Source of the DNA: Thermoanaerobaculia bacterium
Lineage (GTDB): Bacteria; Acidobacteriota; Thermoanaerobaculia; UBA5066
Length of the DNA stretch: 64,000 nucleotides
Assembly: GCA_038245905.1 (NCBI GenBank)
Contig: JBBRRY010000015.1
Span: forward strand, 14,611 to 78,610
Direction of reading: 5' to 3'
Part shown: positions 1 through 14,590 of the stretch, one piece after another
Layout of the letters: each line of letters starts with the position of its first letter
Position numbering within the stretch: the stretch's first letter is position 1
The notes under the pieces: generated by a model
Databases searched by the model: none
Seen by the model: only the letters and a program-made list of their open reading frames with translations
Told to the model about the DNA's origin: nothing
Translations under genes and position numbers: made by a program

Positions 1-477
1 GCTGCGGTGGTTCATCACGAAGACCACTGCCGAGCCGTCCGGAATGGCCGCCAGCCCCGCGTCGTCCGCCGAGCCGATGCGCACCCGGTAGAGCGTCCGG
101 GCGACGGCGCGCGCCACCGCATAGCCGGCGCGGAAGTAGATCCAGGCGTTGAACGCGGGGACGATCTCCGTCGCATAGCGACGGACGCGCTTCTGCACCT
201 CCTCGCGCGGTGCGCCCGTTTCCCTCGCGAACGCCTCGGCGGCCTCGAGGACCTTCGGGTCGAAGCGAAGCTGTTCCACGAGGACTTCTCGCTTCGTGAG
301 CTTGAAGGACGGGATGCGCAGGGGCAGCCGCGTGTTCAGCTCGTCGATGACGCGGTTCGCGCGGCGGCGGAGCACGGCGCGCATCGCGGGCCGGAGCAGC
401 CGGTCGACGACCGCCCAGCCCGCGAGGAGGGCCAGGAGGGCGAACGCCCAGACGGGGAGAGAGACCGTCGCGTGCAT
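1..477 (-). CDS. Membrane acyltransferase (PlsB/PlsC-type glycerolipid acyltransferase), partial; C-terminus lies outside the window
   Basis: Absent from the ORF track because it runs off the left edge. Reverse-strand translation from the ATG at comp(475..477) gives MHATVSLPVWAFALLALLAGWAVVDRLLRP...IPDGSAVVFVMNHRS. This is an N-terminal TM helix followed, at the window edge, by the start of the acyltransferase H(X)4D box (NHRS..). Confidence 0.6.
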   Translation of the reverse strand, partial: MHATVSLPVWAFALLALLAGWAVVDRLLRPAMRAVLRRRANRVIDELNTRLPLRIPSFKLTKREVLVEQLRFDPKVLEAAEAFARETGAPREEVQKRVRRYATEIVPAFNAWIYFRAGYAVARAVARTLYRVRIGSADDAGLAAIPDGSAVVFVMNHRS

Positions 478-533
478 GGTTCGGGGGTCGCCCCGATTGT
501 GTCAGAGGGCGCGAGTCGCGGTCTAATTGACGA

Positions 534-1598
534 ATGAAGACGCTCGCGCTCGCGGCGGCGCTCGCCGCATGTTCCGCCTCCGCCCAGATCGTGCCGCAGC
601 CCCAGGTACCGGGCGACGCCGTTGTCCGGGACTTCCGGTTCGCGAACGGAGAGACTCTTCCCGAGCTAAAGATTCACTACGTCACGATCGGGCGGAAGCT
701 CGACGATGGGCGAGGGCGCACGACGAACGCCGTCCTCGTCCTGCACGGGACGGGCGGCTCGTCGGCCCAGTTTCTCGGCCCGAATTTCGCGGGCGTTCTG
801 TTCGGGCCGGGTCAGCCGCTCGACGCGTCGCGCTACTTCATCGTGATCCCGGACGGTGTCGGCCACGGCGCCTCGTCGAAGCCGAGCAACGGCCTGAAGG
901 CGAAGTTCCCCCGCTATACATACGACGACATGGTCAAGGCGCAATACCGGCTCCTGACCGAGTCCCTCTCGGTGGACCACCTCAGGCTCGTGATCGGGAC
1001 CTCGATGGGCGGCATGCAGACGTGGATGTGGGGCGAGACGTACCCCGCCTTCATGGACGCCCTTCTGCCTCTCGCGAGCCTACCGAACGCGATCGCGGGC
1101 CGGAACCACATGTGGCGAAAGATGGCGATGGACCTCATTCGCGAGGACCCCGAGTGGAAGGGCGGCAACTACGACGCACAGCCGCGTGGGCTCAAGGGGG
1201 CGCTTGCGCTCCTACTCGTTCTGTCGGGCAGCCCGCACCAGTGGATGCGGCAGGCGCCCGACCTGGCGGCCGCCGACGCTGCGGTTGAAGGCTACATGAA
1301 GGACCGATTCGCGAAGGTCGACGCGAACGACCTGCTCTTCGCGCTCGACGCATCCCGCGACTACGACCCGTCCCCGCGCCTGGAGAGGATCCAAGCGGCG
1401 CTCCTGGCGCTCAACTTCGCGGACGACGCCATCAACCCGCCCGAGCTCGGCCTTCTCGAAAAGGGCGTGGCGCGCGTCAAGAACGGGCAGGCCGTGGTCT
1501 TCCCGCTCTCGGAAAAGACGCGCGGCCACCAGACACACACCTGGCCGGACCTTTGGAAAACTTACCTCTCCGAGCTGCTTGCTCGCTCGAAGAGGTAA
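534..1598 (+). CDS. Secreted alpha/beta-fold hydrolase (homoserine O-acetyltransferase/MetX-like family)
   Basis: Signal peptide MKTLALAAALAACSASAQ. Contains VLVLHGTGGS and a nucleophile elbow GTSMGGMQTW (GxSxG). Length and layout resemble MetX-like hydrolases. Confidence 0.8.
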   Translation: MKTLALAAALAACSASAQIVPQPQVPGDAVVRDFRFANGETLPELKIHYVTIGRKLDDGRGRTTNAVLVLHGTGGSSAQFLGPNFAGVLFGPGQPLDASRYFIVIPDGVGHGASSKPSNGLKAKFPRYTYDDMVKAQYRLLTESLSVDHLRLVIGTSMGGMQTWMWGETYPAFMDALLPLASLPNAIAGRNHMWRKMAMDLIREDPEWKGGNYDAQPRGLKGALALLLVLSGSPHQWMRQAPDLAAADAAVEGYMKDRFAKVDANDLLFALDASRDYDPSPRLERIQAALLALNFADDAINPPELGLLEKGVARVKNGQAVVFPLSEKTRGHQTHTWPDLWKTYLSELLARSKR

Positions 1599-1636
1599 GT
1601 GAAGGTCTCAGTCAGGTCAGAGCCGGCCGGCGCGAA

Positions 1637-2029
1637 TCACCTGTAGATGAGGCGCTCGTGCGACCAGTGGCCAGGGTAGTAACGAGTTCCGCCGCGCACC
1701 CTCTGGTAGCGGGGAGCGATCCAGCGCGCGCGGGCGCGCGGCCGTTCGAACCAGCGGCCGTCGTTCCAGCTCCAGTCCGTACCCGTGTGGTTCCAATACC
1801 CGCCCTGCCATACGTGATTCGGGCCCGGCCGCGCGATGCGGACTTCGTGGCGGCGCTCCGGTGGAGCCTGCGGGACGATGCGGACGTGCAGATCGCCCAT
1901 CATCGGGGGCGCGGGCATCCCGGGCGGCACGGGGGGGTGAGGCTGCGCGATCGCCGTCCCCGCGAAGGGCAAGGCGGCCGCCAGCACGAGGAGAGCGGCG
2001 GAGAGAGTGAGATGTTTGGTTTTTCTCAT
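1637..2029 (-). CDS. Small secreted WxxGxW/YxWGxW-repeat protein
   Basis: Internal ATG at comp(2027..2029) of the 291-aa track ORF gives 130 aa starting MRKTKHLTLSAALLVLAAALPFAGTAIAQP (signal peptide). This is followed by repeated HVWQGGYW, WSWNDGRW and YYPGHW motifs. The upstream part of the track ORF overlaps the STAS gene antisense and looks non-coding. Confidence 0.7.
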   Translation of the reverse strand: MRKTKHLTLSAALLVLAAALPFAGTAIAQPHPPVPPGMPAPPMMGDLHVRIVPQAPPERRHEVRIARPGPNHVWQGGYWNHTGTDWSWNDGRWFERPRARARWIAPRYQRVRGGTRYYPGHWSHERLIYR

Positions 2030-2128
2030 GACTGAGACTCTGCAAGCCTCAGGCCAGAAGGCGACGCTGTGCGGGTCAGAACGCTGGCTTTCGCACCGGC
2101 CTTCTGACATCCTCCGCCCACAAACCCG

Positions 2129-2464
2129 ATGGATCTCTCGCTCCACGAAGACGGAAGTGTCACGGTCGTCACGCTTTCTGGCGACCTCATCATCGGCGAC
2201 GCTGAGGCCGTGTTCAAGAAGACCGTGAGCCGTCTTCTCGAGGAAGGCAAAGTGCAGCTCGTCGTCGATTGCGGAGGCCTCAGATACGTCGATTCGTCCG
2301 GCCTCGGCGCTCTCGTACGCGCGCTCACGACGTCGCAGCACGAGGGCGGCGGGACGAAGCTCCTGGGGGTCCCGTCGTCGCTGCGGAAGCTTCTCGAGCT
2401 GACGAAGCTGGATTCCGTCTTCGAGATGTTCGAACAGCGCGACGAGGCCGTCTCGAGCTTCTAG
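2129..2464 (+). CDS. STAS-domain protein (anti-sigma-factor antagonist, SpoIIAA/RsbV-like)
   Basis: 111 aa. VVTLSGDLIIGDAE...LVVDCGGLRYVDSSGLGALV carries the conserved DSSGL phospho-serine motif typical of STAS antagonists. Confidence 0.85.
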   Translation: MDLSLHEDGSVTVVTLSGDLIIGDAEAVFKKTVSRLLEEGKVQLVVDCGGLRYVDSSGLGALVRALTTSQHEGGGTKLLGVPSSLRKLLELTKLDSVFEMFEQRDEAVSSF

Positions 2465-2491
2465 ATCGCCGGCGCTCCGGCGCCGGAAACG

Positions 2492-4912
2492 GTGCACATG
2501 GGTGACGTCCACGGAACGGGCCGGACCTCCGAAGCCGAATCCGGCGTTCTCGGAGAGCTCGCGCGCTGCGAGACCGTCGCGCAGAAGGCGGCATGGGCCG
2601 CACGCTGGTGCGCGCGACTCTCCGGAGCGGACATCGCGCTAGTCTTCTGCGTCGACGCGCCCTCCGGCGGGTGGATCGCCCTCGGCGCTTCCGGCGAAGG
2701 CGCGGCGAAGAGCCTTCGCCGCGTCATCCCACGGGATGCGGGCGTCGCGCGGGATGCCGCGCGCAGTCGCGCGCTCCGCGTGATGCGCCGCGACGATGCC
2801 GCTTTCGTTTCCGATCCGATCGTGTCCCTACTCCCGGGGGGCTCCGGATCTGTCCTCATCGCCCCGCTTCTTCTCGACAAGGGTGCGGCCGGCGTGGCGG
2901 CGCTCTCCTTCCGTCAGGAGCCGGCGGCAGAGCGGATCGGGCGGCTCGAAGCCTTCCTGCCCGACGCCGCCGCGGCACTCGATCGCGCGCAGCTCGCGGA
3001 ACGCAAGACGGCCGGGCACCTTTTTGCCATCGAGCGTCTCACGAACCTGTACGACGTCGCGAAAGCGTTCGGCTCGACGATCGATCTGGAAGACCTGTCC
3101 GGACTCATCGCCCGGAAGGCCGCGGACTTCGTGGCGGCCGAGGTCGCGTCGTTCTGGCTTTTCGACTCCGAGGCGGGTGAAGTCTCTCTGGCGGCGACGG
3201 CTCTCAACGAGAACTACGAGATACCGAATCCGCCCGAGTCCATCGGCGGGTCCATCGTCGGGGCCGTCCTCGCGGACCGAACGATCCTGAGAAACAGCGC
3301 GCTCGCGGACGACGATCCCCTCCGGCACGCCGATCCGCCCTTCGAGACACGCTCTGTGCTCGCCGTGCCGCTCGTCGAGGACGACTCTCCGGTCGGCGTC
3401 CTCGTCGCCGCCAACAAGCGCGGGCGCCGCCCGGAGTTCACCGCGGCGGACGAGGAGCTACTCGTCGACGTCGCCCGGCAAGCCGTCGCCGCCTTGCGTA
3501 ACGCGCGGCAGTACGAGGCCGAGAAGAAAGTCGAGGAACTGGACGCCCTCCTCGCGGTGAGCCACGAGATCACCTCGACGCTCGACCTCGACAAGGTGAT
3601 GCGGACGATCGTCAACGGAGCGTCGGCCCTGATCCGTTACGACCTTTGCGCAATCGCGATCCTTCAGCGGGGGAAGCTGCGGATTGGGGCGGTCTCAGGG
3701 GCGTTGGACGTGGACCGGAAAGAGCCGTCGGTTCGGCGGACCGAGGCGCTCCTCGAGTGGGTCTTCTTCGGCGGCTCCGACGTCGCCGTCACGCGCCGCG
3801 AGGACGGCACCATCGCCACCGACCGCCCGGAGACAGAGGAGAAGTTCCGCGCGTTCTTCGACGAGAGCGGCCGCAACGCGTTCTACGGAGTCCTGCTCGA
3901 GGACGACGAGGGAAAACTTGGCGTTCTCGGCTTCGAGTCGACGGAGCCCCTCGAGTTCGAGGCGGAGACCCGGGATCTCCTCCGGATCCTCGTCAACCAG
4001 GCCACCGTGGCCGTCCGCAATGCCCAGCTCTACCAGCAGGTTCCCCTGCCTGGCTTCCTCCGGCCTCTCGCGGAGCGGACACGGAAGCTGCGGGAGCAGC
4101 CCGGCAACCGCGCCCGGCGATGGGTGCTCGGGAGCGCTGGTGCCATGGTCCTTTTGGCCGTCCTGCCGTGGAATGTGAGGGTGTCCGGGCCCGCGCGGGT
4201 CGTGCCGGGCCGGCGGATCCCGGTCACGGCGTCCGTGGAAGGCGTCGTCGAGAGCGTGGCGCATCGCGAGGGGGATGCCGTCGTCGCCGGGGCCGTCCTC
4301 GCGACGCTTCGCGACGACGCCTACCGCGCCGCGGCGGCAGAGGCGCGCGCGGCCGAACAGATCGCCGACTCCGAGGTCTCCCGGCACCGCGCCGAGGGAA
4401 ACGCTCCCGCACTTTTCCAGTCCGCCGCCCGCCGCGACGAATTGCGGGCGCGCGCGGCTCTCGCGGAGGAGAAGCTCGAGAGGACGCGCCTCCGCGCGCC
4501 CGAGGCCGGCATCATCCTGACGCCACGGCTCGAGGAGCGCCTCGGCCAGCTCCTTCCCGCCGGCGCCGAGTTCGCGGTCCTCGCCGAGACGTCCGCCGTC
4601 CTCGTCGAGGTGGCCGTGCCGGAACGGGATGCGTCGCTCCTCGCCGCCGGGCAGAGGGTCGACGTCAAGCTGAACTCATATCCCGCGGCGACGTTCCACG
4701 GGACCGTCGCCCGCCTCGGCGCCGTCGTCCGCGAGGAAGGTGAGGAGCGTTTCGTCATCGCCGAGGCGCGCGTCGAGAACGCGGACGCGCTGCTCCGGCC
4801 CGGAATGCTCGGGAAAGCCAAAGTTTCGACGGGACGCCAGCGGCTTCTCCGCGCCCTCCTCCGCAAGCCGGCGCGCTGGTTCTGGGTACGGCTCTGGCCT
4901 CTCCTGCCGTGA
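2492..4912 (+). CDS. Triple-GAF sensor fused through one TM helix to a HlyD-type membrane fusion (periplasmic adaptor) domain
   Basis: GTG start. Three GAF-type endings are visible: VLIAPLLLDKGAAGVAALSF; SVLAVPLVEDDSPVGVLVAANKRG..ARQAVAALRNARQY; FYGVLLEDDEGKLGVLGFES..VNQATVAVRNAQLY. A TM segment follows (WVLGSAGAMVLLAVLPW). The C-terminus is an HlyD barrel-sandwich/coiled-coil region (VTASVEGVVESVAHREGDAVVAGAVLATL...LRAPEAGIIL...GMLGKAKV). Confidence 0.8.
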   Translation: MHMGDVHGTGRTSEAESGVLGELARCETVAQKAAWAARWCARLSGADIALVFCVDAPSGGWIALGASGEGAAKSLRRVIPRDAGVARDAARSRALRVMRRDDAAFVSDPIVSLLPGGSGSVLIAPLLLDKGAAGVAALSFRQEPAAERIGRLEAFLPDAAAALDRAQLAERKTAGHLFAIERLTNLYDVAKAFGSTIDLEDLSGLIARKAADFVAAEVASFWLFDSEAGEVSLAATALNENYEIPNPPESIGGSIVGAVLADRTILRNSALADDDPLRHADPPFETRSVLAVPLVEDDSPVGVLVAANKRGRRPEFTAADEELLVDVARQAVAALRNARQYEAEKKVEELDALLAVSHEITSTLDLDKVMRTIVNGASALIRYDLCAIAILQRGKLRIGAVSGALDVDRKEPSVRRTEALLEWVFFGGSDVAVTRREDGTIATDRPETEEKFRAFFDESGRNAFYGVLLEDDEGKLGVLGFESTEPLEFEAETRDLLRILVNQATVAVRNAQLYQQVPLPGFLRPLAERTRKLREQPGNRARRWVLGSAGAMVLLAVLPWNVRVSGPARVVPGRRIPVTASVEGVVESVAHREGDAVVAGAVLATLRDDAYRAAAAEARAAEQIADSEVSRHRAEGNAPALFQSAARRDELRARAALAEEKLERTRLRAPEAGIILTPRLEERLGQLLPAGAEFAVLAETSAVLVEVAVPERDASLLAAGQRVDVKLNSYPAATFHGTVARLGAVVREEGEERFVIAEARVENADALLRPGMLGKAKVSTGRQRLLRALLRKPARWFWVRLWPLLP

Positions 4913-7104
4913 GCGCAGCTGCGCCGGACCCGGTCTCGCGGTACGTTGCGGCCGCCCGCGGCGGACGCGGCGCGGCGGCTCTCGCCGCGCGCCACACCCC
5001 TCGGCAGGACCACCCCGCCCTTCGGGCGGACCTCGTCATCCGCCGCCAGGTGCGAATCGGCGAGGTCACCTGGGTCGTCAAGCAACCGGAGGCGAACAAG
5101 TTCTACAACTTCGAGGACGCCGACTGGACCCTCATCGAGCTTTTCGACGGAACGCGGAGTCTCACTGAAATCCGCGAGGAGTACTGCCGGCGGGTCCCGG
5201 GAGGCGAGATCGCCTTCACCCTCATCCTCGACTACCAGGAGATGCTGCAAAGGATCGAGTTCCTGGAGCAGTCGGCGGCCGAGAAGAACCTCCAGCTCCT
5301 GTCGAAGTTCAAGACCCTGAGGCAGAAAGCGGCGGAGGAGCGCGCGGAGGGTTTCAACATCCTCTTCATGCTCTTCAAGGTCTTCGACCCCGACCGGATC
5401 CTCAATCGGACGATCCGGTACGTCCGCTGGCTCTGGAGTCCCCCCGTCGTCGCGGTCGCCTGTGTCGCGTTCCTCTTCACGATCGGTGTCTTCGCGGCGC
5501 GCTTCGACACGATCTGGGCCCAGACGATCGAGCTCTACTCGTTCCTGAGAAAGCCGTTCTGGGACTTCGTCCAATTCTGGGTCATCCTGACCACGATCGG
5601 CTGCATCCACGAGTTCGGTCATGGCTATGCCACGAAGATGTACGGGGGCGAGGTCCATGACATGGGGATCGCCCTCCTCTACTTCATGCCTGCCTTTTAC
5701 TGCGACACGACGGACTCGCTCCTCTTCCCGAGCAAGTGGCAGAAGCTGACGGTCACGGTGGCGGGGATCTACATCGAGGCGATCCTCTGCACGATCGCGA
5801 CGGCGCTCTGGGTGGCGAGCTACCCCGACACGCTTCTCCACGAGCTGGCCTACAAGACGATGCTCTTCACCGGGGTCTCGACGATCTTCTTCAACATCAA
5901 CCCCCTCGTGAAGATCGACGGCTACTACGCGCTTTGCAGCCTCACCGAGATCCCGGAGCTGCGCGAGGAGTCTTTCCGCTGGATGGGCGCGATCTTCCAG
6001 CGCCACATCCTCCGCCTGAACGTCGAGGTGCCGGTCGTGTCGCGGCGGAAGAGGCGGATCTTCCTGATCTACGGTCCGCTCGCGCTGGGCTACATCGGTT
6101 TCATCATGGCGTTCATCACGAAGCTCCTCGACAACTTCTACTCGAAGGTCGTCCCGGAGCTGGCCGTCGTCCTCCTCCTCGTCACGCTCTACTTCTTCTT
6201 CCGGAAGAGGGTCCGCCTCGTCCTCCGGATCTCCCGCCTCTTCTATCTCGACAAGAAGGAGCTCGTCATGTCGCCGCGCGCCCGTCTCCCTCTCCTTGCT
6301 GCCGCCGCCGGCCTCGTCCTCTTTCTCGCCGTCCCCTGGGGCCGGCGGACGATCAGGATGGACGCCGTCCTCGAGCCCGCCGCGTCGGTGAAGGTCGAGG
6401 CCCCGGAGGACGGAGTCGTGCGGGAGGTCTTCGCGCGCGAAGGGGACATCCTGCGGGCGGGCCAACCGCTTTTCCGGATCGAGAGCCCCGGCGTCGTGGC
6501 CGATTCCGCGTCCCTCTCGGCCCGCCGCGCGGGGGCTGCCGACGAGATGGGAAGGAGCTTCCGGTCCGGAGACGCCGGGGAGGTCTATCGGGCCGAGCGG
6601 AAGGAGGGGGCGGCCGCAGCCGGTCTTGCCCTCGACACGGCGCGCACGGCGCGACTCTCCGTGCTCAGCCCGATGGACGGGCGTCTCCTTTCGGAAGGCG
6701 CGGAAAACCTCGTCGGCAGGTGGGTTACGGCAGGAACCGTTCTCGGAACAGTTGGCGCCACGCGGCAGCTCACGGCAGTATTCCCGGTCTCGGAGCGCCT
6801 TCTGACAGACCTTGTGGTCGGAGCGCCGGTTTCGGTGCAGCTTCGCGCGCGCCCGTTCCACATCCTCCACGGCACGATTGTTTCCATAGCTCCCGCGTCT
6901 CAGGCCGCTTCGTCCGACACCCCCCCGGCACTCCGCCCGTCCGAAACGCCCGGCCGCATCGTGGCTGTGGCGCGTTTCGAAAATCCCGACGGCAGCCTGA
7001 AGCCGAGGCTCGAAGGGAGGGCGAAGATCAGGGGGCCTCGGAGCTCGCTCCTCGGAGAGGGCTTCCGGATCCTCTCCCGTTGGCTCCGCGCGATCGCCTG
7101 GTGA
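4909..7104 (+). CDS. Tri-domain membrane protein: PqqD-like (RRE-like) N-terminal domain + M50 (site-2 protease family) zinc metalloprotease + C-terminal HlyD-type adaptor domain
   Basis: GTGA start/stop overlap with the upstream gene. N-terminus FYNFEDADWTLIELFDGTRSLTEIREEY...ILDYQEMLQRIEFLE resembles PqqD/RRE domains. M50 motifs are present: IHEFGHGYATKMYGG (HExxH) and FFNINPLVKIDGYY (NxxPxxxxDG), within multiple TM segments. The C-terminus (VKVEAPEDGVVREVFAREGDILRAGQPLFRIESP ... GRAKIRG) is HlyD-like. Confidence 0.8.
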   Translation: MSAAAPDPVSRYVAAARGGRGAAALAARHTPRQDHPALRADLVIRRQVRIGEVTWVVKQPEANKFYNFEDADWTLIELFDGTRSLTEIREEYCRRVPGGEIAFTLILDYQEMLQRIEFLEQSAAEKNLQLLSKFKTLRQKAAEERAEGFNILFMLFKVFDPDRILNRTIRYVRWLWSPPVVAVACVAFLFTIGVFAARFDTIWAQTIELYSFLRKPFWDFVQFWVILTTIGCIHEFGHGYATKMYGGEVHDMGIALLYFMPAFYCDTTDSLLFPSKWQKLTVTVAGIYIEAILCTIATALWVASYPDTLLHELAYKTMLFTGVSTIFFNINPLVKIDGYYALCSLTEIPELREESFRWMGAIFQRHILRLNVEVPVVSRRKRRIFLIYGPLALGYIGFIMAFITKLLDNFYSKVVPELAVVLLLVTLYFFFRKRVRLVLRISRLFYLDKKELVMSPRARLPLLAAAAGLVLFLAVPWGRRTIRMDAVLEPAASVKVEAPEDGVVREVFAREGDILRAGQPLFRIESPGVVADSASLSARRAGAADEMGRSFRSGDAGEVYRAERKEGAAAAGLALDTARTARLSVLSPMDGRLLSEGAENLVGRWVTAGTVLGTVGATRQLTAVFPVSERLLTDLVVGAPVSVQLRARPFHILHGTIVSIAPASQAASSDTPPALRPSETPGRIVAVARFENPDGSLKPRLEGRAKIRGPRSSLLGEGFRILSRWLRAIAW

Positions 7105-7114
7105 CCGTAAACAC

Positions 7115-7142
7115 GAGCGCCCCGGCCGGAGCCGGGGCGCTC
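7115..7142. terminator. Bidirectional stem-loop between convergent genes (M50-HlyD gene and repeat-peptide gene)
   Basis: GAGCGCCCCGGC-CGGA-GCCGGGGCGCTC: a perfect 12-bp GC stem with a 4-nt loop, between the stop at 7104 (+) and the stop at 7165 (-). No clear U-tract on either side. Confidence 0.55.
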
Positions 7143-7164
7143 ATGGACGCGGGGAGATGCGCCG

Positions 7165-7569
7165 TCAGTCGGCGTTGTCCGTCGCCCGCGCGTTCAGGAT
7201 TTTGGGGGCCGCCTGCGTGCGGGCCGCGGTAACGCGGGGGGCCGCCTGCGCGCGGGCCGCGGTAACGCGGGGGGCCGCCTGGGCGCGGGCTGCGGTGACG
7301 CGAGGAGCCGCCTGCGCGCGGGCTGCGGTGACGCGAGGAGCCGCCTGCGCGCGAGCCGCGGTGACGCGAGCGGCTGCCTGCGCGCGCGCCATGTTGACGC
7401 GGGGGGCCGCCTGCACACGGGCGCTCGTGACCTTGGCCGAAGTCGTCGGCGTCATGGCGGGGTTGTTGCCGAGATTGCTGACGCGGATCTCACCGACGGC
7501 CTGACCGGTCGCCTGCTTGATCTTCGCCTTCTGCTCGTCGGTCAGCTTGATCCGTACTTCGTTTGCCAT
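7165..7569 (-). CDS. Small (134 aa) leader-plus-tandem-repeat protein; candidate exported or processed peptide precursor
   Basis: ATG at comp(7567..7569) preceded by GAAAGAGGAGGCCACC, a strong AGGAGG Shine-Dalgarno. N-terminus is MANEVRIKLTDEQKAKIKQATGQAVGEIRVSNLGNNPAMTP. Then come about 8 copies of an 11-aa unit: 4 perfect RVTAARAQAAP plus the variants KVTSARVQAAP, RVNMARAQAAA, RVTAARTQAAP and KILNARATDNAD. A sigma54 promoter lies upstream. The longer track ORF (7165..7638) has a non-coding-looking N-terminal extension. Confidence 0.7.
   Translation of the reverse strand: MANEVRIKLTDEQKAKIKQATGQAVGEIRVSNLGNNPAMTPTTSAKVTSARVQAAPRVNMARAQAAARVTAARAQAAPRVTAARAQAAPRVTAARAQAAPRVTAARAQAAPRVTAARTQAAPKILNARATDNAD
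7204..7434. repeat. Seven tandem copies of a 33-bp unit (encode the 11-aa repeats of the small ORF)
   Basis: Period 33 with unit starts at 7204, 7237, 7270, 7303, 7336, 7369 and 7402. Consensus on the + strand is GGGGCCGCCTGCGCGCGGGCCGCGGTGACGCGG. Central copies differ by only 1-3 nt and outer copies are more diverged. Confidence 0.9.
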
Positions 7570-7633
7570 GGTGGCCTCCTCTTTCTTTCGTTCTTCCGTT
7601 CTCGTTGTCCCTGGCTTGGGGCGCAATCTCAAT

Positions 7634-7649
7634 TGCAAAGAGGGGGCCA
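7634..7649 (-). promoter_or_regulatory. Sigma54 (RpoN) -24/-12 promoter for the repeat-peptide gene
   Basis: The minus strand reads TGGCCCCCTCTTTGCA, against the consensus TGGCAC-N5-TTGCW. GG and GC have the exact canonical spacing. It lies about 65 nt upstream of the ATG at 7569 and 117 nt downstream of the stop of the sigma54 activator gene. Confidence 0.75.
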
Positions 7650-7765
7650 GACCAGTCCGGCCGCCAGAGACCCGTAAGTGGTTGAGGAAACGTCGAGACC
7701 GCCTCGTCGCGGTTACGCCGGCTCGATGACTCTTTCAACCTCGGTTGACGGATTCATCGGTCCGC

Positions 7766-9163
7766 TCAGAGGCGGTACTTCCGGCAGAGGTACTTCATCT
7801 GGTTTGCGTCGAGGCCGAGTGCTTCGGCGGCCCGCACCTTCACGCCTCCGGCGCGGGAAATGGCCTGGCTCACGAGCTCCCGTTCGAACCTTCCGACCGA
7901 CTCGGCAAGGGAGAGGTCGGCAGAGTGCGTCGCGGCGGGTTGGGCCGGCTCCCGGGAGCCGCCGGCCCGGCCCAACGTCCCCGGCAGATGCTCCTCCCCG
8001 ATCGTGTCGCCGTCCACCATGAGCGTCAGCATCTCGACGAGGTGTTCCAGCTCGCGCACGTTTCCGCGGAAGATGTGTCGCCCGAGCACCTCGAAGGCTT
8101 CGGACGAGAAGGCCTTCGGGCGGCGGCCATGGCGCTCTGCGGCCCGCGCCGTGAAGAATTCCACGAGCAAGGGGATGTCCTCGCGCCGCTCTCTCAGCGG
8201 CGGAATCCTCAGGATGACGGTGTTCAGGCGATAGAAGAGGTCATTGCGGAACGTTCCCGCCGCCACCTGACGCTCCAGGTCTTCGTTCGTGGCCGCGACG
8301 AGCCGGATGTCGACGTGGATCGTCTTCGTCCCGCCGACCCGCTCGAAGTCGCGCTGCTCGAGGACGCGCAACAACTTGGCCTGTACGGCCGGGGATAGTG
8401 TCGCGACTTCGTCCAGGAAGAGCGTCCCGCCGTGAGCCATCTCGAAACGCCCGGGCCGGGAGGCCACGGCCCCGGTGAAGGCACCCCGCTCATGGCCGAA
8501 GAGCTCGGACTCGGCTAGCGTCTCCGTGAGCGCCGAGCTGTTCACGGCTACGAACGGCCCGTCCCGGCGAGTGCTCCCCCGGTGGATCGCTTCGGCCACG
8601 AGCTCTTTCCCCGTTCCGCTTTCACCGGTCACGAGGACGGTCGCGTCGGTGGGGGCCACCTTCTCGATGGCGGCGAAGAGCCCGCGCATGCTTGGGCTCT
8701 CGCCCACCAGCCCGCCGTACGACCCACGCTTGAAGATCTCCTCCTTCAGCGCCCGGTTTTCAGCCAGGATGCGGTGTCGCTCCAAGGCTCGCCCGAGAAC
8801 GAGGAGCAGCTCCGACTTCTCGAAGGGCTTCCGGAAGAAATCGAATGCACCCAGCTCGACGGCTTTCAGCGCCCAGCGGCGCTCCGCCTCCGCCGTCATG
8901 ACCACGACCGTGGCGGCCGGCTGGCGCTGCCGAATGGCCCGCAGCAGACGGAGCCCCTCTTCCGCCTCGCCCGACGGCGGGAGCCGGAGGTCGACGAGGT
9001 AGACGTCGGGCTCGAGCTCGGCCAGCTTGAGCCCCGCGGCGGCGTCCCCTGCACTGTGGACTTCGAACCTGTCCTTCAGAGCCCAGAGGAGCTGGTCGCG
9101 CAGGAGCGGATCGTCTTCCACGACGGCGAGGCGCCCCTCCACCGTCTTTTGGACCACGCCCAC
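7766..9163 (-). CDS. Sigma54-dependent response regulator (NtrC-family bacterial enhancer-binding protein: REC + AAA+ + Fis-type HTH)
   Basis: REC domain LAVVEDDPLLRDQL...DVYLVDLRLPP. Walker A GESGTGKE. The sigma54-contact loop ERGAFTGAV (GAFTGA) is present. C-terminal HTH KVRAAEALGLDANQMKYLCRKY. Confidence 0.92.
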   Translation of the reverse strand: MGVVQKTVEGRLAVVEDDPLLRDQLLWALKDRFEVHSAGDAAAGLKLAELEPDVYLVDLRLPPSGEAEEGLRLLRAIRQRQPAATVVVMTAEAERRWALKAVELGAFDFFRKPFEKSELLLVLGRALERHRILAENRALKEEIFKRGSYGGLVGESPSMRGLFAAIEKVAPTDATVLVTGESGTGKELVAEAIHRGSTRRDGPFVAVNSSALTETLAESELFGHERGAFTGAVASRPGRFEMAHGGTLFLDEVATLSPAVQAKLLRVLEQRDFERVGGTKTIHVDIRLVAATNEDLERQVAAGTFRNDLFYRLNTVILRIPPLRERREDIPLLVEFFTARAAERHGRRPKAFSSEAFEVLGRHIFRGNVRELEHLVEMLTLMVDGDTIGEEHLPGTLGRAGGSREPAQPAATHSADLSLAESVGRFERELVSQAISRAGGVKVRAAEALGLDANQMKYLCRKYRL

Positions 9164-9165
9164 GC

Positions 9166-9891
9166 CTACACCTGCCGGCCAGGCGCGGCCGGAAGCGGCA
9201 GGAAGAGACGGACGCTGGTGCCCTCGCCCTCCGCACTTCTAACCTCGACGTCGCCCCGGTGGTGGCGCAGGATGCGGCGCGCCGTGTAGAGACCGAGTCC
9301 CACGCCTCCGGGCTTCGTCGTCTGGAACGGCCGGAACAGGCGCCGCCGCACGAACTCTCCCGACATCCCGGGCCCGTCGTCCTCGACGTCGACCACGGCG
9401 AAGTCTCGCGCCCCTCGCCGCTCGAGGCTCGTGCGTACCGTCACGCAGCTCTTCGCGGCCTCCTGCGCGTTCTGAATCACGCCCTGGATCGCCTCTTGCA
9501 AGTAGTAAGGGTCGCCCCAGAGCCCGGGGACCTCGGCGAAGGTCGCGTTCATCCGCGGTGTCGACGCCCGCCCCCGGGGGTGGCACGTGTGCAGGGCCTC
9601 CCGGATCAGGTCGTTCAGATCGAGCGGCACCTTGATGAGGACCGAGTCGCGATGAGCCGACCAGCTTCTCGCGATCCCGTCGAGCTTCTGGACGGTGGAT
9701 TGCAGGAGGTCCGTGGCGCTGCGTTTGAAATCCGGATCGCCGTAGTGCTCCTCCATGTTCGACAGGAGAAGGCTGAGGCGGAGCTCGAGGTTCCGGATGT
9801 CGTGGATGAGGACGGAGTCCTTCGTGGCGCGGATGCGTCGACGCGGGGCAGCCGTGCGTGTCGCCATGGTTTCAGGGCCGGGAAGGCGCAC
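9166..9891 (-). CDS. Soluble histidine kinase (DHp + HATPase_c only; no TM or sensor domain)
   Basis: H-box VLIHDIRNLELRLSLL. N/G boxes VIQNAQEA, VEDDGPGM and GGVGLGLYTARRILRHHRG. The stop lies 2 nt from the regulator start. An alternative start at comp(9865..9867) (MATRTA..) would avoid overlap with the upstream adaptor gene. Confidence 0.85.
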   Translation of the reverse strand: MRLPGPETMATRTAAPRRRIRATKDSVLIHDIRNLELRLSLLLSNMEEHYGDPDFKRSATDLLQSTVQKLDGIARSWSAHRDSVLIKVPLDLNDLIREALHTCHPRGRASTPRMNATFAEVPGLWGDPYYLQEAIQGVIQNAQEAAKSCVTVRTSLERRGARDFAVVDVEDDGPGMSGEFVRRRLFRPFQTTKPGGVGLGLYTARRILRHHRGDVEVRSAEGEGTSVRLFLPLPAAPGRQV

Positions 9892-10657
9892 GGAACGTGA
9901 GCCGGACCGCCATCCCCGGCCGCAGTATTTTTTTCGGATCGTGCTTCACCCGCACGATCACCTGCACCGTCCCGCTGCCCGGATCGATGACGGGGCTGAT
10001 GAACGAGACGCGCCCGCTCGAGCGTGCGTCCGGGAAATCCGGAGCCTCCACGGTCACTTCGTCACCGGTCTTCACGGTCTGAAGGCCGGAGGCCGGCAGA
10101 TAGGCGCGCGCCAGAAGCGGCTGGAGCGCCATCACCTTGAAGAGCGGTTTGCTCTCTTCGAGCGTGAACTTTTCCCCCACGCGCGCGTAACGGTCCGCCA
10201 CGATCCCGTCGAAGGGAGCGCGCACCACGGACCGGTCGATCACGAGTTTCGCCCTCTCCAGCTCCACGAGGGCCAGCTCGTGTCGCGATCTTCTCTGCTC
10301 GAACTCGGCCTCGCTCGTCAGATTCTGGCGGCGCAGCTCCTCGTACCTTTTCAGGTCCGCGAGACTCACGGCGAGCGTCTCCTCCGCGGCTCTCAGATCC
10401 AGGCGGAACTCGCGCTGGTCCAGCGTGGCGAGCGGCTGCGACTTCCGCACGAGCTCGCCCCGCTCGACCTGGATCGAGTCGATCACGCCGCTGACCCGAG
10501 TCGTCACCGTGACTTCCTGCTCGACCATCAGGTTCGAGGCGACGGTGAGCGGCGCAGGAAGCGCCGGCGCCGGCAGAGCGGCGCTGGCCCTCGCGAGCGC
10601 AAGGAGGGAGACGGCGATGAACGCCCGACCGGTAAGCCGGATTGAGTCGCGCGTGAC
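9872..10657 (-). CDS. HlyD/RND-type periplasmic adaptor (membrane fusion protein); start codon uncertain
   Basis: Typical MFP sequence VTTRVSGVIDSIQVERGELVRKSQPLATLD...VVRAPFDGIVADRYARVGE...GSGTVQVIVRV. The first canonical start is the ATG at comp(10526..10528). The in-frame upstream codons encode a signal anchor (RLTGRAFIAVSLLALARASAALPAP). A GGAGG at comp(10663..10667) sits 5 nt before a GTC codon at comp(10655..10657). The track ORF extension to 11137 overlaps the aminotransferase gene and is rejected. Confidence 0.75.
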   Translation of the reverse strand, partial: VTRDSIRLTGRAFIAVSLLALARASAALPAPALPAPLTVASNLMVEQEVTVTTRVSGVIDSIQVERGELVRKSQPLATLDQREFRLDLRAAEETLAVSLADLKRYEELRRQNLTSEAEFEQRRSRHELALVELERAKLVIDRSVVRAPFDGIVADRYARVGEKFTLEESKPLFKVMALQPLLARAYLPASGLQTVKTGDEVTVEAPDFPDARSSGRVSFISPVIDPGSGTVQVIVRVKHDPKKILRPGMAVRLTFRAPSRP

Positions 10658-10695
10658 TTTTTCCTCCAGGGTGTCTGGAACGGAATGATACCGAA

Positions 10696-11922
10696 TCAGG
10701 CGGGCGTGAGCGCGCGCACGAGGCGCTTGAGGGCCTCGTAGAAAACACCAGGCGGCGGCAGGAGGCTGACGACGACGAACGCCTCGAAAGGGAACTCGTA
10801 GAAATAGCCGGGCTGGACGAGCAGATCGTGTGATTCGAGGAGATCGAGGACGAGCTCCTCCTCGGGGCGGACAGCCGGCACGCGGAGGCACGCGGCCCAG
10901 CCGGCCCGGACGGGTAGGACCGTAACACCGCCACCCGCGGGGAAGGCAGCCTTGAGCGCGCGCTCGTTGCGAAGCACGCGCGCCCAGATCGCTTCCGCCG
11001 TCCCGCGCCCGTACTCCAGAAGCCTGGGGAGCGCGAGCTGCACGGGCGTCGAGACGGAGAGATACGAATCCGCAACCCACTCGAGGCGCTCGATCGCCTG
11101 CTCGAGGAGCCCGGCGGGTCCATTCGCGAGTATCCATCCGAGCTTCATCTGCGGGAGGCCGGCCGACTTGGAGAGCCCGCCCAGCGAGAAAACGAGCGCT
11201 TCGGGCGCGTTCGCGGCTGCGGCCACGCGCACGTCGCCGGGCCGGTCCGAGTAGCGATAGTCGACGAACACCTCGTCGGAGACGACGGCGAACCGGCGCT
11301 CCTTCGCCAGCGTCATGAGATCCGACAGCTCCGCGCCAGAGAGGGAGGTGCCCGTCGGGTTGTTCGGATTGACGACGACCACGGCCGCGACGCGACGTCC
11401 TTCCACCTCGACGCGCCGCACTTCCGCCTCCACGGCCGCCGCGTGGAACGCGAAGCCGTCATCGCTCGCGAGCGCGTAGCGGCGCAGCGACAGGCACTCG
11501 AGCTCCGCGAGGGTGTCGAGAAGCGGGTAGGACGGCGCCGGCACGAGGACGACGTCGCCGGGATCGCCCACCAGCTTGAAAAGCCAGCCGTAGGCTTCGC
11601 TCGACGAGGCCGTCAGGACGATCTGGTGCGGGGGCGCGAGAACGCCGTGCAACGCCGCGTAGTAGTTGCTCACGGACGTGCGCGCCGCGAGCAGTCCCCT
11701 CGGATCGGGTGCATACGAGAGGCCGCGGGGATCGGAGAGAGCCGCGAGAATGCGCGCGTCCGGCGCCGACGCAGCGTTGTCGAAGAGGTCGGCTTCGCCC
11801 GAACGCAGAGAGACGGCGGTCGGATTCGACACGGCGAGATCGAGGAACGGGCGCGTTCGCGCCGCGACCGCGCGCGTCAGGCGGTTCACGTCGCGGGGGG
11901 CGGGGATCCGCTGCGAGAACAT
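10696..11922 (-). CDS. Class I/II pyridoxal-phosphate-dependent aminotransferase
   Basis: 408 aa. LDLAVSNPT, VVVNPNNPTG and FSLGGLSKSAGLPQMKLGW (PLP-lysine SKS motif) are typical of AlaT/AspC-like transaminases. Confidence 0.85.
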   Translation of the reverse strand: MFSQRIPAPRDVNRLTRAVAARTRPFLDLAVSNPTAVSLRSGEADLFDNAASAPDARILAALSDPRGLSYAPDPRGLLAARTSVSNYYAALHGVLAPPHQIVLTASSSEAYGWLFKLVGDPGDVVLVPAPSYPLLDTLAELECLSLRRYALASDDGFAFHAAAVEAEVRRVEVEGRRVAAVVVVNPNNPTGTSLSGAELSDLMTLAKERRFAVVSDEVFVDYRYSDRPGDVRVAAAANAPEALVFSLGGLSKSAGLPQMKLGWILANGPAGLLEQAIERLEWVADSYLSVSTPVQLALPRLLEYGRGTAEAIWARVLRNERALKAAFPAGGGVTVLPVRAGWAACLRVPAVRPEEELVLDLLESHDLLVQPGYFYEFPFEAFVVVSLLPPPGVFYEALKRLVRALTPA

Positions 11923-11937
11923 GCGCGGCGCGTTTTC

Positions 11938-14031
11938 TCAGCGCCCGGACACGAGGTCTTCGGGTTTCCACGGCGAGGCGGCGCCGCCGAGGAACCTGTG
12001 GAACCAGTCGAGGTGCGCCGCGTAGTAGAGGCCCATCTCGAACGCGCTCGGCCAGTGGCCCGCCTTCTCGAACACGATCAGGCGCGACGGCACGCCGCGC
12101 GCCTGCAGGTCCGTGAAGAATTCGAGCGACTGCGTATAGGGAACGCGGAAGTCCTTTTCGCCGGTAATGACGAGGCAAGGGGTGCGGAAATCTGTCACGT
12201 ACGAGGACGGCGATTGCTTCGCGTAGAGGTCTCCGTTCTCCCACGGCGCGCCCTTGATGTCCCACTGGGGGAACCAGACCTCCTCGGTCGAGGAGTACAT
12301 CGCGCGCAGGTCGTAGACGCCCATCATCGAGGCGAGGGCCTTGAACCTCGTCGTGTGGCCTTCGAGCCACATCGTCGCGTAGCCGCCCCAGGACCAGCCC
12401 ATCGCGCCCATGCGGCTCTTGTCCACATACGGAAGCCTCTCGAGCGCGTCCGCGACTTTCTCGATGTCGGTCATCACGCGGCCGTTCCAGTCGCCCGAGA
12501 TGGCCGACGTGTAGGCCTGGCCGAATCCGGTCGAGCCGTGCGGATTCGGAAATCCGACGACGTAACCCGCGCCCGGATAGACCTGCCAGTCGCCGCGGTA
12601 GGAGTCCGCCCACTGCTGCTGCGGCCCGCCGTGGATGTTCAGGATGAGCGGGTACTTCTTCGCAGGATCGAAGCCGTGCGGCTTGACGATCCAGACCTGC
12701 ACGGGCTGTCCGTCGGCACCGGGCACGCTGATCTCCTCGGCCGGCCGGATGTCGACCTCGTTTTCGAGGGCGGCGTTGTGCGTCGTCAGGCGCTGTCCCG
12801 CCTCGTCCGCGCCTTTCGCGAGAGAGAGGCGGTAGAGTTCGAGCGGGCTCCCGATGCGGCGCCGCGCGGCCACGGCGAAGGTCACGTCCGGCGCGAGCGT
12901 CCACGCGTCGAGAGACCCGACGGACGACACCGCGCGGAAGGCGCCCGTCGCGAGGACGATCTCGTAGAGCGGCGTTCGCCCCTTCACGTCGGCCGTGAAG
13001 AAGATCCGGCTTCCGTCCCGCGAGAAGTCGAAGTCGCGGACCGCGTTGTCGAACCTGGCCGTGAGGTCACGCTCGGCGCCGGTCGCGCGGTCCCGGAGGA
13101 CGATCCGGAAGCGGTCGGCCTCGTAGCGGGGCGTGAGCTGCCGCTTGAAGGCGAGGAAGCGGCCGTCGGGGGAATAACGCGGCGACCCGTCGTAGCCCTT
13201 GTTCCAGGCCGTGAGATTTTTCGGGACTCCGTCACCCTTCACGGCGACGGTCCAGACGTCCGCGTTCGTCGAGAAGGCGGCGTCCGCGTCGCGGTTCGAA
13301 GAGAACGTGAGCTCGGTCCCGTCCGGCGAGAGGTCGAAGTCCCGCCCGCCACCGACCGAGAAGACGGGCGAGTCGAAGTCGCCCGGTGTCAGGTCGCGAA
13401 TCGCCTTCGCCGCGTCGGGCTCGGCAAGGTCGAGGATGAAAACATGCGTGCGCTTCCCGTCCTTCCACTCGGTCCAGTGCCGGTAGAGGAGGGCGTCCGC
13501 GAGGTGCGCCTTGATCTTGTTCGCCTCGTGCGCGTCGGCCGCCTTCTTGTTGCACGCCGCGTCGGCGCCGCAGGAGGGGACGACGTCCGCCGCGAAGAAG
13601 ACGGACCGGCCGTCCTTCGAGAAGGCCGGCCCGTCGATCCCTCCGGGGAACCGGGTCTTCTGCTCGGCCTCGCCGCCGCCAAGAGGGAGGAAGAAAAGCT
13701 GCGGTTCACCCGTACGCGTCGAAACGAACGCGAGCGTCTTTCCGTCAGGCGAGAAGAACGGGTGCTCGTCGCGCGCGTCGCCTGCGGTGATCGGCCGGGC
13801 GTTTGTCCCGTCCGCGTCCACGCGCCAAAGGGCGGCGGTCTTCCTCTTCGTCGCCCAGTCGTTCGTCGTGACGGTGTAGACGATCGCCTTCCCGTCGGGC
13901 GAGATCGCGGGCTCGCCGACGGCCTTCACGCGATAGAGGTCCTCGAGCGTGAAGGCGCGGCCGGAGGAGGCGGCGAGAGCGGGAGAGGCGAGGACGAAGA
14001 AGAGGGCGAAGGCGGTGGACAGTTTCGGCAT
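11938..14031 (-). CDS. Secreted S9-family serine peptidase (prolyl oligopeptidase/acylaminoacyl-peptidase type; N-terminal beta-propeller + alpha/beta hydrolase)
   Basis: Signal peptide MPKLSTAFALFFVLASPALA. Repeated propeller motifs (SPDGK.., FSPDG.., YSPDGRFLAF). Catalytic GxSxGG in MGAMGWSWGGYATMW. C-terminal GEKDFRVP and AGHW motifs. Confidence 0.9.
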   Translation of the reverse strand: MPKLSTAFALFFVLASPALAASSGRAFTLEDLYRVKAVGEPAISPDGKAIVYTVTTNDWATKRKTAALWRVDADGTNARPITAGDARDEHPFFSPDGKTLAFVSTRTGEPQLFFLPLGGGEAEQKTRFPGGIDGPAFSKDGRSVFFAADVVPSCGADAACNKKAADAHEANKIKAHLADALLYRHWTEWKDGKRTHVFILDLAEPDAAKAIRDLTPGDFDSPVFSVGGGRDFDLSPDGTELTFSSNRDADAAFSTNADVWTVAVKGDGVPKNLTAWNKGYDGSPRYSPDGRFLAFKRQLTPRYEADRFRIVLRDRATGAERDLTARFDNAVRDFDFSRDGSRIFFTADVKGRTPLYEIVLATGAFRAVSSVGSLDAWTLAPDVTFAVAARRRIGSPLELYRLSLAKGADEAGQRLTTHNAALENEVDIRPAEEISVPGADGQPVQVWIVKPHGFDPAKKYPLILNIHGGPQQQWADSYRGDWQVYPGAGYVVGFPNPHGSTGFGQAYTSAISGDWNGRVMTDIEKVADALERLPYVDKSRMGAMGWSWGGYATMWLEGHTTRFKALASMMGVYDLRAMYSSTEEVWFPQWDIKGAPWENGDLYAKQSPSSYVTDFRTPCLVITGEKDFRVPYTQSLEFFTDLQARGVPSRLIVFEKAGHWPSAFEMGLYYAAHLDWFHRFLGGAASPWKPEDLVSGR

Positions 14032-14576: not shown

Positions 14577-14590
14577 GAATCCTCCGAGAT

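Follow-up and report, generated by a model that had tools for sequence, protein, structure and literature searches.

How might a small leader-bearing protein be processed, and perhaps exported, by a locus that encodes a membrane protease and three periplasmic adaptor modules but no pump? The question is raised by a segment at ~2129-10657 of a 64,000-nucleotide (nt) stretch of DNA from a Thermoanaerobaculia bacterium (contig JBBRRY010000015.1), the stretch as a whole being referred to below as the window. The segment, in a region with a G+C content of ~68%, is a cassette of seven genes that is conserved across this class of soil Acidobacteria. Genes for a STAS-domain protein, a GAF-HlyD protein and an RRE-M50-HlyD fusion, in which RRE stands for the recognition element for peptides that are synthesized ribosomally and modified post-translationally (RiPPs), lie in this order on the plus strand. 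Convergent to them, on the minus strand, are a small open reading frame (ORF) and the genes for a bacterial enhancer-binding protein (bEBP), a histidine kinase and a further HlyD adaptor. An earlier note on this DNA had listed these genes, and Pfam and NCBIfam searches confirmed the list. The cassette may constitute a self-contained, regulated module for leader-guided peptide maturation that is probably coupled to export, a proposal for which we find the arguments about evenly balanced. It draws on the following features.

2129..2464, plus strand: STAS-domain protein of 111 amino acids (aa), encoded at the start of the plus-strand operon and containing a DSSGLG motif (PF01740, E 6e-18)
2492..4912, plus strand: protein of 806 aa with the architecture GAF-GAF-GAF, one membrane segment, HlyD adaptor (GAF E 3e-23 over two stretches; HlyD_D23 E 3e-21)
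4909..7104, plus strand: fusion of RRE, M50 intramembrane metalloprotease and HlyD, 731 aa (Pfam Peptidase_M50, HlyD_3/HlyD_D23)
5035..5253, plus strand: putative RRE (PqqD-like) leader-recognition domain of the fusion, residues 43-115, predicted to be cytoplasmic (structure model and Foldseek)
5608..5922, plus strand: catalytic motifs of the M50 part of the fusion, with HEFGH at residues 234-238 and NPLVKIDG at residues 331-338 (alignment of 53 homologues)
6340..7104, plus strand: C-terminal periplasmic adaptor module of the fusion, residues 478-731 (Foldseek; secondary structure in an AlphaFold2 (AF2) model)
7115..7142, no strand assigned: GC-rich hairpin with a 12-bp stem and a 4-nt loop (centroid structure; z = -3.2 for a 71-nt stretch)
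7165..7569, minus strand: precursor-like small gene, 134 aa (leader hidden Markov model (HMM), repeat and codon analysis)
7575..7579, minus strand: Shine-Dalgarno sequence GGAGG 5' of the small gene
7634..7649, minus strand: sigma54-type -24/-12 promoter TGGCCC-CCTCT-TTGCA, i.e., TGGCCC-N5-TTGCA (orthologue comparison)
7681..7748, no strand assigned: half-sites GTTGA/TCAAC of enhancer-like character (7681, 7735, 7744), in the interval from the stop codon of the bEBP gene to the promoter
7766..9163, minus strand: bEBP with a receiver (REC) domain, an AAA+ domain with GAFTGA and a Fis-type helix-turn-helix (HTH_8) (PF00158 E 7e-70, PF00072, PF02954)
9166..9891, minus strand: soluble histidine kinase of 241 aa, with a dimerization and histidine phosphotransfer (DHp) domain with an HDIRN H-box, and HATPase_c (PF02518 E 6e-21)
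9872..10657, minus strand: 261-aa protein, the third periplasmic adaptor, encoded at the start of the minus-strand operon (HlyD_D23 E 2e-24)

The distribution of these genes suggests that they belong together. In species-representative genomes, 103 relatives were found and 80 loci were fetched, a gene being counted as present when tblastn aligned at least 50% of the query. All six protein genes were found together in 53 of the 57 full-length Thermoanaerobaculia loci, and their order and orientation were as in the window in L001-L006, the loci whose coordinates were inspected. The genes that flank the cassette in the window, which encode an alpha/beta hydrolase, a WXXGXW protein, an aminotransferase and an S9 peptidase, recur in just 2-3 related loci, and when the flanking ORFs of 55 loci were clustered all against all, any additional gene family was confined to 43 loci at most. 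Since the six genes co-occur and the flanks of the window do not recur, the conserved unit is the seven-gene cassette at ~2129-10657. The small gene was traced separately with an HMM built from three leaders. In 73 of 83 sources, its match is a convergent ORF that follows immediately on the M50 gene; in all of the remaining 10, the contig ends within ~300 nt of the M50 gene. Thus, the association of the small ORF with the M50-HlyD gene, on which the earlier note depended, is seen in every locus whose contig reaches far enough.

The product of the small gene consists of two very different parts. Residues 1-38 (nt 7456-7569) constitute the leader, and the tail is built of 11-residue repeats (RVTAARAQAAP), of which 6.6 copies of a 33-bp unit are present at 7204-7422, before the protein ends with ATDNAD. 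No signal peptide and no hydrophobic segment were detected in the protein. Searches of Pfam and NCBIfam with the leader and with the entire protein assigned it to no family, apart from a sub-threshold match to Apolipoprotein that is explained by the 11-residue periodicity of the tail in the window. The leader follows the consensus M-A-N-E-V-R-I-K-L-T-D-E-Q-K-A-K-I-K-x-A-T-G...E-I-R-V, with nine invariant positions (M1, V5, L9, T10, Q13, I17, T21, G22 and E27). When orthologous leaders are compared, differences are twice as frequent at third codon positions, and synonymous changes account for 44% of the differing codons vs. 9-13% in shifted frames. The leader thus evolves as coding sequence, in agreement with the earlier note, which had treated the small ORF as a gene, and the ORF is presumably translated. 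An ORF of 115 codons on the plus strand (7157-7504), antisense to the repeat tail, was set aside as an artefact: it is open because the repeats contain no stop codons in that frame, and it was dismissed because the conserved leader and the codon statistics identify the frame on the minus strand as the coding one.

The tail changes from genome to genome. The period of the repeat varies between 3 and 22 residues, with 9, 5 and 6 as the commonest values, and examples of units are KAT, LKSPS, ANTPR, AQDLS, LRDDA, AAAPRG, KAMRAQ, GRAAGKSIA and RYAAAKAAAP, besides RVTAARAQAAP in the window. The total length of the protein ranges across loci from 76 to 227 aa. The tails are rich in Ala (28%), Arg (13%), Ser (12%) and Lys (7%), contain almost no Cys or Trp, and have a net charge above +2 in 60 of 71 cases; in 8 loci the charge is negative, down to -21. 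Repeat units already differ between genomes whose M50 proteins are ~85% identical. A fixed leader followed by a changing repeat tail is the pattern that would be expected of a recognition tag on a cargo that is under diversifying or relaxed selection. In three loci, two precursor genes are found in tandem (L056, 10994-12279; L058, 6272-7436; L065, 10957-12366). In L056 and L058, the leader of the second copy diverges (E-[LV]-K-V-E-L-T-D-A-Q-K-[AT]-K-I-R...) and its repeats are acidic or neutral, which suggests duplication and divergence of the precursor. In three other loci, the repeat ORF runs on into a long, unrelated-looking frame (L017, 10124-12016; L018, 11062-11799; L070, 10816-11487); this is likely due to a frameshift or an assembly error within the repeats, such arrays being error-prone in metagenome-assembled genomes (MAGs) from short reads. 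A search of 5.8 billion proteins with the leader profile retrieved just 31 short, unnamed proteins, the longer repeat-bearing forms evidently having been missed by the word index.

The region upstream of the small gene points to control by sigma54. A GGAGG-like element is present in nearly all orthologous upstream regions. When at least 8 of 10 consensus positions with an intact GG/GC were demanded, 71 of 72 orthologues had a -24/-12 element at a distance of 27-65 nt upstream of the start codon vs. 1.0% of random 85-nt windows from the same loci, and the near-consensus promoter that had been proposed for the window is thus a conserved one. Further upstream, at 78-135 nt from the -24 element, a GTTGA-N5-TCAAC palindrome with at most one mismatch is present in 48 of 71 loci (0.5% in controls). 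This layout of palindrome and promoter is as expected for an enhancer-binding activator that is encoded immediately upstream, and presumably it is this bEBP that binds the GTTGA/TCAAC sites. Together, the promoter, the GAFTGA-containing activator and the upstream sites support the prediction that the bEBP controls the small gene through sigma54. Elsewhere in the 64-kb window, there is a sole other strict sigma54-type match, TGGCCT-GAGGC-TTGCA at 2041-2056 on the minus strand, which ends 11 nt before the ATG (2029) of a gene for a WXXGXW-repeat secreted protein (1637-2029, minus strand). It is probably fortuitous, because so short a distance leaves no room for a ribosome-binding site and because 128 kb of DNA should contain about one such match by chance.

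The presumed partner of the leader is the M50 fusion protein, the GTG start codon of which overlaps the TGA stop codon of the preceding gene. The earlier note had described its N-terminal domain as PqqD-like. The Pfam model of that name is silent, but the domain does have an RRE/PqqD-like fold, an assignment that is based on a structure model and on homology to the daptide protease MpaP. A model of residues 33-122 (predicted local distance difference test (pLDDT) score of 89) contains three beta-strands followed by three alpha-helices, which is the RRE topology. The first nine Foldseek matches are all leader-binding RREs, from TbiB1, CteB and TfuB1, with template-modelling (TM) scores of 0.54-0.72 and probabilities of 0.98-1.0. 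At the top are the lasso-peptide RREs of TbiB1 (5v1u/5v1v; TM 0.65-0.68) and TfuB1 (6jx3; TM 0.69-0.72), together with the RRE domain of CteB. NF041824, the model for MpaP, matches residues 53-431 of the fusion (E 1e-49) and thus spans both the N-terminal domain and the M50 core. In a profile search of the Protein Data Bank by sequence, PqqD (5sxy) was the best match of the domain, but with an E value of just 0.1. The domain is therefore called an RRE here on the grounds of fold and NF041824 homology, and leader binding is predicted.

The protease part can be assigned with less difficulty. PF02163 scores 35.5 bits (cut-off 27.2), the HExxH and NxxPxxxxDG signatures of Peptidase M50 are both present, and H234, E235, H238, N331, P332, D337 and G338 are invariant across the 53 homologues. 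Hydropathy and the AF2 model of the full-length protein (pLDDT 78) indicate seven hydrophobic segments, and the predicted topology places the RRE and both catalytic motifs at the cytoplasmic side and the adaptor module in the periplasm. In the AF2 model, this module displays a hairpin of two helices of ~27 residues each, and its Foldseek matches are the adaptors MexA, AcrA, MacA and ZneB (E ~1e-13). Hundreds of homologues of the fusion, all of ~731 aa and with 54-90% identity, are found in Thermoanaerobaculia/Acidobacteriota MAGs. The wider family comprises 2,610 matches at E <= 1e-30 among 1.84 billion representative proteins; the best 150 of these are mostly full-length (~680-840 aa) with 25-36% identity, and the remainder are shorter fragments. 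Its members carry generic annotations, such as 'putative peptide zinc metalloprotease protein' or 'efflux RND transporter periplasmic adaptor subunit', and the few distant representatives that could be placed taxonomically belong to Blastocatellia and Planctomycetota.

The other two adaptors are of different build. The 806-aa protein has a single hydrophobic segment (residues 544-562), matches HlyD_3 as well as HlyD_D23, and has a homologue in 77 loci. Three GAF domains had been claimed for it; two are assigned with confidence, and the third, at the N-terminus, is weak (GAF_2, E 0.005). The third adaptor scores 158 bits with TIGR01730 (cut-off 94.9) and has an N-terminal membrane anchor (hydrophobic segment at residues 12-30). 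The three HlyD assignments of the earlier note were right, HlyD_D23 and HlyD_3 being above cut-off in all three proteins. The STAS protein is recognized by TIGR00377 (63 bits; cut-off 53.45) and has a homologue in 73 related loci; Pfam domain calls revealed no RsbW-type partner for it within the cassette. In the 241-aa kinase, neither a sensor domain nor a hydrophobic or membrane segment was detected by Pfam and hydropathy analysis. The hairpin with a 12-bp stem, which had also been described before, lies at 7115-7142 between the convergent genes and is probably a bidirectional terminator. Scans for sigma70-type promoters and intrinsic terminators were uninformative in the GC-rich DNA of the window, and no Rfam family was matched across positions 1-20000. 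A role in anti-phage defence was rejected, as PADLOC yields just generic matches to the AAA+ domain of the bEBP.

Related loci exist outside the class. Weak matches of the leader profile led to homologous leader peptides of 46-59 aa, such as MDDKIRIELTDEQKAKIRQATGQEASAIELTAEELEDRVSPRKKAF, in four loci of Gemmatimonadota (L087, 11064-16120; L088; L083; L086). The order of genes there is GAF-GAF-HlyD, HlyD, RRE-M50-HlyD, a Crp-family cyclic-nucleotide-monophosphate-binding regulator, one or two peptides and a cyclase-AAA-TPR protein. The RRE-M50-HlyD protein is 31% identical to that of the window over its full length. The cyclase protein (~1,100 aa; zinc ribbon, cyclase, AAA and MalT-type TPR) adjoins the peptide genes in three loci; the sequence of the fourth, L083, stops too early for a decision. 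The sequence TGTGAC-N4-GTCACA precedes four of the five peptide genes, this Crp-type palindrome lying ~240 nt upstream. The tails that follow the sequence ELEERVSP are short, i.e., 4-15 residues, with RTMRQK, RKKAF and RKSFAK as examples, and one of them contains a threefold MPRKA repeat. The ELExxxxP motif before these tails resembles the leader motif ELExMEAP of daptides (Ren et al., bioRxiv 10.1101/2023.03.08.531785), which may be a lead towards the cleavage site but is no proof of it.

In other Acidobacteriota loci, the adaptor trio, the bEBP and convergent small genes are kept. The small genes encode two copies of a 29-aa Lys-rich peptide, peptides of 35 and 24 aa and, on a Blastocatellia-like contig, a further repeat protein with the unit STSSAQTRLPSG. 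Sigma54-like promoters precede the small genes in those loci that were examined for them. One distant adaptor trio is flanked by two OEP genes of the TolC family, and a member of the fusion family in Planctomycetota is located in a different gene context. From the comparison of the two phyla, the common core consists of three adaptor modules, the RRE-M50 protease and a leader-bearing small gene as regulated target, with interchangeable regulators.

The following mechanism can be proposed for the cassette. First, the sensor-less kinase would phosphorylate the enhancer-binding response regulator, which would bind the GTTGA/TCAAC palindromes ~100 nt upstream and activate the sigma54 promoter, with the small gene as sole product; for such regulated synthesis of the precursor, the comparative evidence is strong. 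Next, the conserved leader of ~38 residues would dock on the cytoplasmic RRE of the M50 fusion, and the M50 domain, with its motifs at the cytoplasmic face, would cut it off, which is the job that MpaP does for daptides. Fold, homology and strict co-occurrence argue for this step of recognition and cleavage; a cut near the semi-conserved G-x-N-P-A is a guess. Finally, the released tail, which is hydrophilic and free of Cys and Trp, would leave the cell through an assembly of the three adaptor modules: the protease-fused one, the GAF-fused one with its three cytoplasmic sensor domains, and the free one. Their hairpins are of similar length, and a TolC-like outer-membrane factor, with its gene at another place in the genome, would serve as the docking partner of the assembly, with the GAF domains and the STAS protein gating export. 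This last step is the least secure; it derives from the known roles of adaptors and from the one distant locus with OEP genes.

Several observations weigh against this proposal. As the earlier note had stated, the cassette lacks genes for a pump, an outer-membrane factor and a tailoring enzyme (Pfam and NCBIfam domain calls), and flank clustering in the 55 loci extends this result: no ABC, RND or MFS transporter is conserved within 8 kb, and no outer-membrane factor in the conserved flanks. To our knowledge, M50 proteases do not translocate their substrates. Without a conserved transporter, the route across the inner membrane and the source of energy are thus left unexplained, and as most tails are strongly cationic, the membrane potential would oppose their export. 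Across the types of repeat, there is neither a residue nor a cleavage motif that all have in common, and a shared downstream processing step is not evident. In addition, Pfam PqqD (PF05402) does not match the N-terminal 212 residues of the fusion even at E <= 10. The earlier note had left the choice between regulated peptide maturation-secretion and envelope signalling open. That part of its reading which concerns a regulated peptide module is supported by domains, co-occurrence, coding evidence and sigma54 wiring, whereas cleavage, secretion and the choice between the two alternatives are matters of inference.

Among known systems, MpaP is the closest relative of the M50 fusion. In MpaP, an RRE is fused N-terminally to an intramembrane site-2 protease, which removes the daptide leader with Pro at position -1 (Ren et al., bioRxiv 10.1101/2023.03.08.531785). 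The arrangement of an N-terminal RRE followed by an M50 membrane domain is shared over the residues matched by NF041824, both proteins would act as leader-dependent peptidases on a small precursor encoded nearby (a prediction in the case of the cassette), and the Gemmatimonadota relatives have ELExxxxP before the tail. However, the score of the fusion, 169.4 bits, is below the equivalog cut-off of 300 of NF041824, and the fusion carries a complete periplasmic adaptor at its C-terminus. The cassette also differs from daptide clusters in that it lacks the tailoring genes for MpaB, MpaC, MpaD and MpaM, in that its precursor has a repeat tail without a terminal Thr instead of a hydrophobic helical core, and in its occurrence in Acidobacteriota and Gemmatimonadota rather than in Actinomycetota or Bacillota. 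Classification as a daptide cluster was therefore rejected: the tailoring genes are missing, the C-terminus of the precursor is wrong, and the adjacent aminotransferase (PF00155) is of the wrong class and, being present in 3 loci only, not syntenic.

In function, the cassette would most resemble the exporters that cleave double-glycine leaders, i.e., the peptidase-containing ABC systems such as CvaAB-TolC and the NHLP/Nif11 three-gene transport clusters. In these systems, a protease physically joined to an HlyD-containing export apparatus recognizes the leader and removes it at the inner membrane, and a similar course of events may be envisaged for the cassette. In place of the C39 protease and the ABC ATPase, it has an RRE-M50 protein and no ATPase; it encodes three adaptor modules instead of one, and the leader has no GG motif. 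The adaptors of tripartite efflux systems (MexA, AcrA and MacA) share the fold of hairpin, lipoyl and beta-barrel domains that Foldseek detects, and the use of more than one type of adaptor per system has a parallel in two-adaptor pumps such as TriABC. Unlike tripartite pumps or the systems of type I secretion, the cassette lacks an ABC, RND or MFS partner. Furthermore, the membrane-proximal domain of the efflux adaptors seems to be missing (the match to TIGR01730 covers no more than positions 18-248 of 322), and in the cassette one adaptor is joined to a protease and another to GAF sensor domains, fusions that two reviews on adaptors do not mention.

Two further comparisons concern the protease and the regulators. 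YydH of the yydFGHIJ operon of Bacillus subtilis and Eep are metalloproteases of the M50 type, as is the fusion (NF058609, E 6e-13), and mature a small exported or signal peptide, a role that is predicted for the fusion. They themselves have no RRE and adaptor fusions; the score of the fusion is 49 bits against 225 for the YydH/LiaK equivalog, and the radical-SAM epimerase and the ABC exporter of YydFGHIJ have no counterpart in the cassette. For the kinase and the bEBP, the best-scoring NCBIfam models are those of PrsK and PrsR, which control low-complexity secreted proteins in PEP-CTERM/exosortase systems. Yet the bEBP, at 429.5 bits, stays below the cut-off of TIGR02915 (502.6), and the kinase, at 142.8 bits vs. 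a cut-off of 300 for TIGR02916, matches the C-terminal third only and lacks the membrane and GAF portion. The small protein, moreover, differs from PEP-CTERM targets as it has neither a sorting signal nor a C-terminal hydrophobic segment.

Instead of exporting a peptide, the cassette could serve in envelope signalling. The adaptor trio would then sense the state of the periplasm or the outer membrane and, together with ligands of the GAF and STAS domains, gate the M50 protease, and the cleaved leader or tail would feed back on the kinase or another target, in a form of regulated intramembrane-type proteolysis that acts on a soluble substrate. M50 proteases are well known from signalling, with RseP and SpoIVFB as established examples. 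Such a function would be in line with several features of the cassette: the kinase lacks a sensor of its own and is in an operon with a periplasmic adaptor, the sensory domains (three GAF and STAS) are attached to, or encoded together with, membrane parts, there is no pump, and the small protein is devoid of a signal peptide and a hydrophobic segment. Also, the regulators differ between the phyla but adjoin the peptide gene each time. However, signalling alone leaves unexplained why three complete adaptor modules with hairpins of a length suited to an outer-membrane factor are present, why the tails are hypervariable repeats instead of a conserved effector, and why OEP genes flank one distant trio. 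We consider this explanation rather unlikely.

A second alternative has the tail itself as the product, the small protein being a polyprotein precursor of a pheromone or bacteriocin that is sensed back by the cell or acts on competitors. In Gemmatimonadota, this would be one short cationic peptide, and in Thermoanaerobaculia a tandem array that is cut after export into species-specific copies of 5 to 22 residues. The shortness of the Gemmatimonadota tails, one of which has the threefold MPRKA repeat, the proximity of a cyclase with MalT-type TPR repeats to the peptide genes and the genome-specific nature of the repeat units are all consistent with this idea. So is the established role of the M50 protease Eep in maturing peptide pheromones in Firmicutes, and enzymes of the YydH/LiaK type mature epipeptides according to the name of the NCBIfam model. 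On the other hand, the cassette encodes no protease that would cut between repeats, and there is no common site at which this could occur, some units being without basic residues and some without Ala or Pro. Neither is an extracellular receptor evident, the kinase being soluble, nor does the cassette contain an immunity gene. On balance, this reading is quite improbable.

The weakest of the three alternatives, that the small protein is an intracellular low-complexity protein (a histone-H1-like, Ala/Lys/Arg/Pro-rich binder of nucleic acids or a hydrophilin) that merely shares a regulator with the adaptor cluster and has no enzyme-substrate relation to the protease, would fit the composition and mostly cationic charge of the tails and the weak Apolipoprotein match of the 11-residue repeat in the window, but it is highly improbable, because it leaves the conserved leader unexplained, because the acidic tails of eight loci cannot bind nucleic acids, and because the conserved part is a leader of exactly the size that suits an RRE and remains the neighbour of the RRE protease in both phyla although regulators and gene order have changed.

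Some observations on neighbouring genes may be added. Just past the third adaptor in the window, genes for a class I/II aminotransferase (10696-11922) and a PD40/S9 prolyl oligopeptidase (11938-14031) occupy 10696-14031 on the minus strand. A prolyl peptidase next to a Pro-containing repeat protein is suggestive, but the pair recurs in 2-3 of 82 related loci. A Dps/ferritin-like protein (14073-14576, minus strand) and an ABC-F protein (14925-16604, plus strand) are encoded outside the cassette; the latter has no membrane domain and is not a transporter. The only flanking genes that do recur in the Thermoanaerobaculia loci are one just upstream of the STAS gene, in 43 of 55, and a LemA-family gene (PF04011) on the opposite strand ~1.5-2 kb past the third adaptor, in 40 of 55 (e.g., L012, 16293-16877). 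In L001 and L002, the cassette is located between genes that resemble cell-wall recycling functions. Upstream in L002, these are of the BcrAD_BadFG kinase-like, SIS/GKRP and amidohydrolase types, the matching genes in L001 having weaker or no domain matches; downstream, an MR_MLE epimerase-like gene is found in both loci, and Amidase_2 and NlpC/P60 in L002 alone. Such flanks may reflect inherited synteny or a link to the cell envelope.

The literature searched contains no description of the fusion, the adaptor trio or the repeat precursor family, and the combination, which the earlier note had not recognized as a described system, was not found there either; a miss in such a search is not proof of absence. 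The cassette appears to belong to the realm of leader-guided peptide maturation and export, with a real chance that it represents something more distinct. In the boldest version, which we think unlikely, the RRE-M50-adaptor, the GAF-adaptor and the free adaptor would form a pump-less trans-envelope route for leader-tagged peptides, in which an intramembrane protease replaces the ABC transporter of type I systems. The cargo in Thermoanaerobaculia would then be a polyprotein of genome-specific repeats, a counterpart in bacteria of the tandem pheromone precursors of eukaryotes, and the core machine would be represented by thousands of uncharacterized proteins in several phyla.

RRE-type leader peptidases and HlyD adaptors are well-studied building blocks, which are joined here without a transporter or a tailoring enzyme and with sensory domains on a second adaptor. 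The predicted circuit of kinase, bEBP, palindrome, -24/-12 promoter and one small gene is simple enough for a direct test in a heterologous host, and the combination of a fixed leader with a repeat unit that switches between close relatives offers an unusually clean natural experiment in repeat evolution. If the cassette does indeed mature and export its product, peptides would leave a diderm cell without a dedicated ATPase, and ribosomal peptides with minimal or no modification, a class that the current rules of RiPP mining miss, would be added to those already known.

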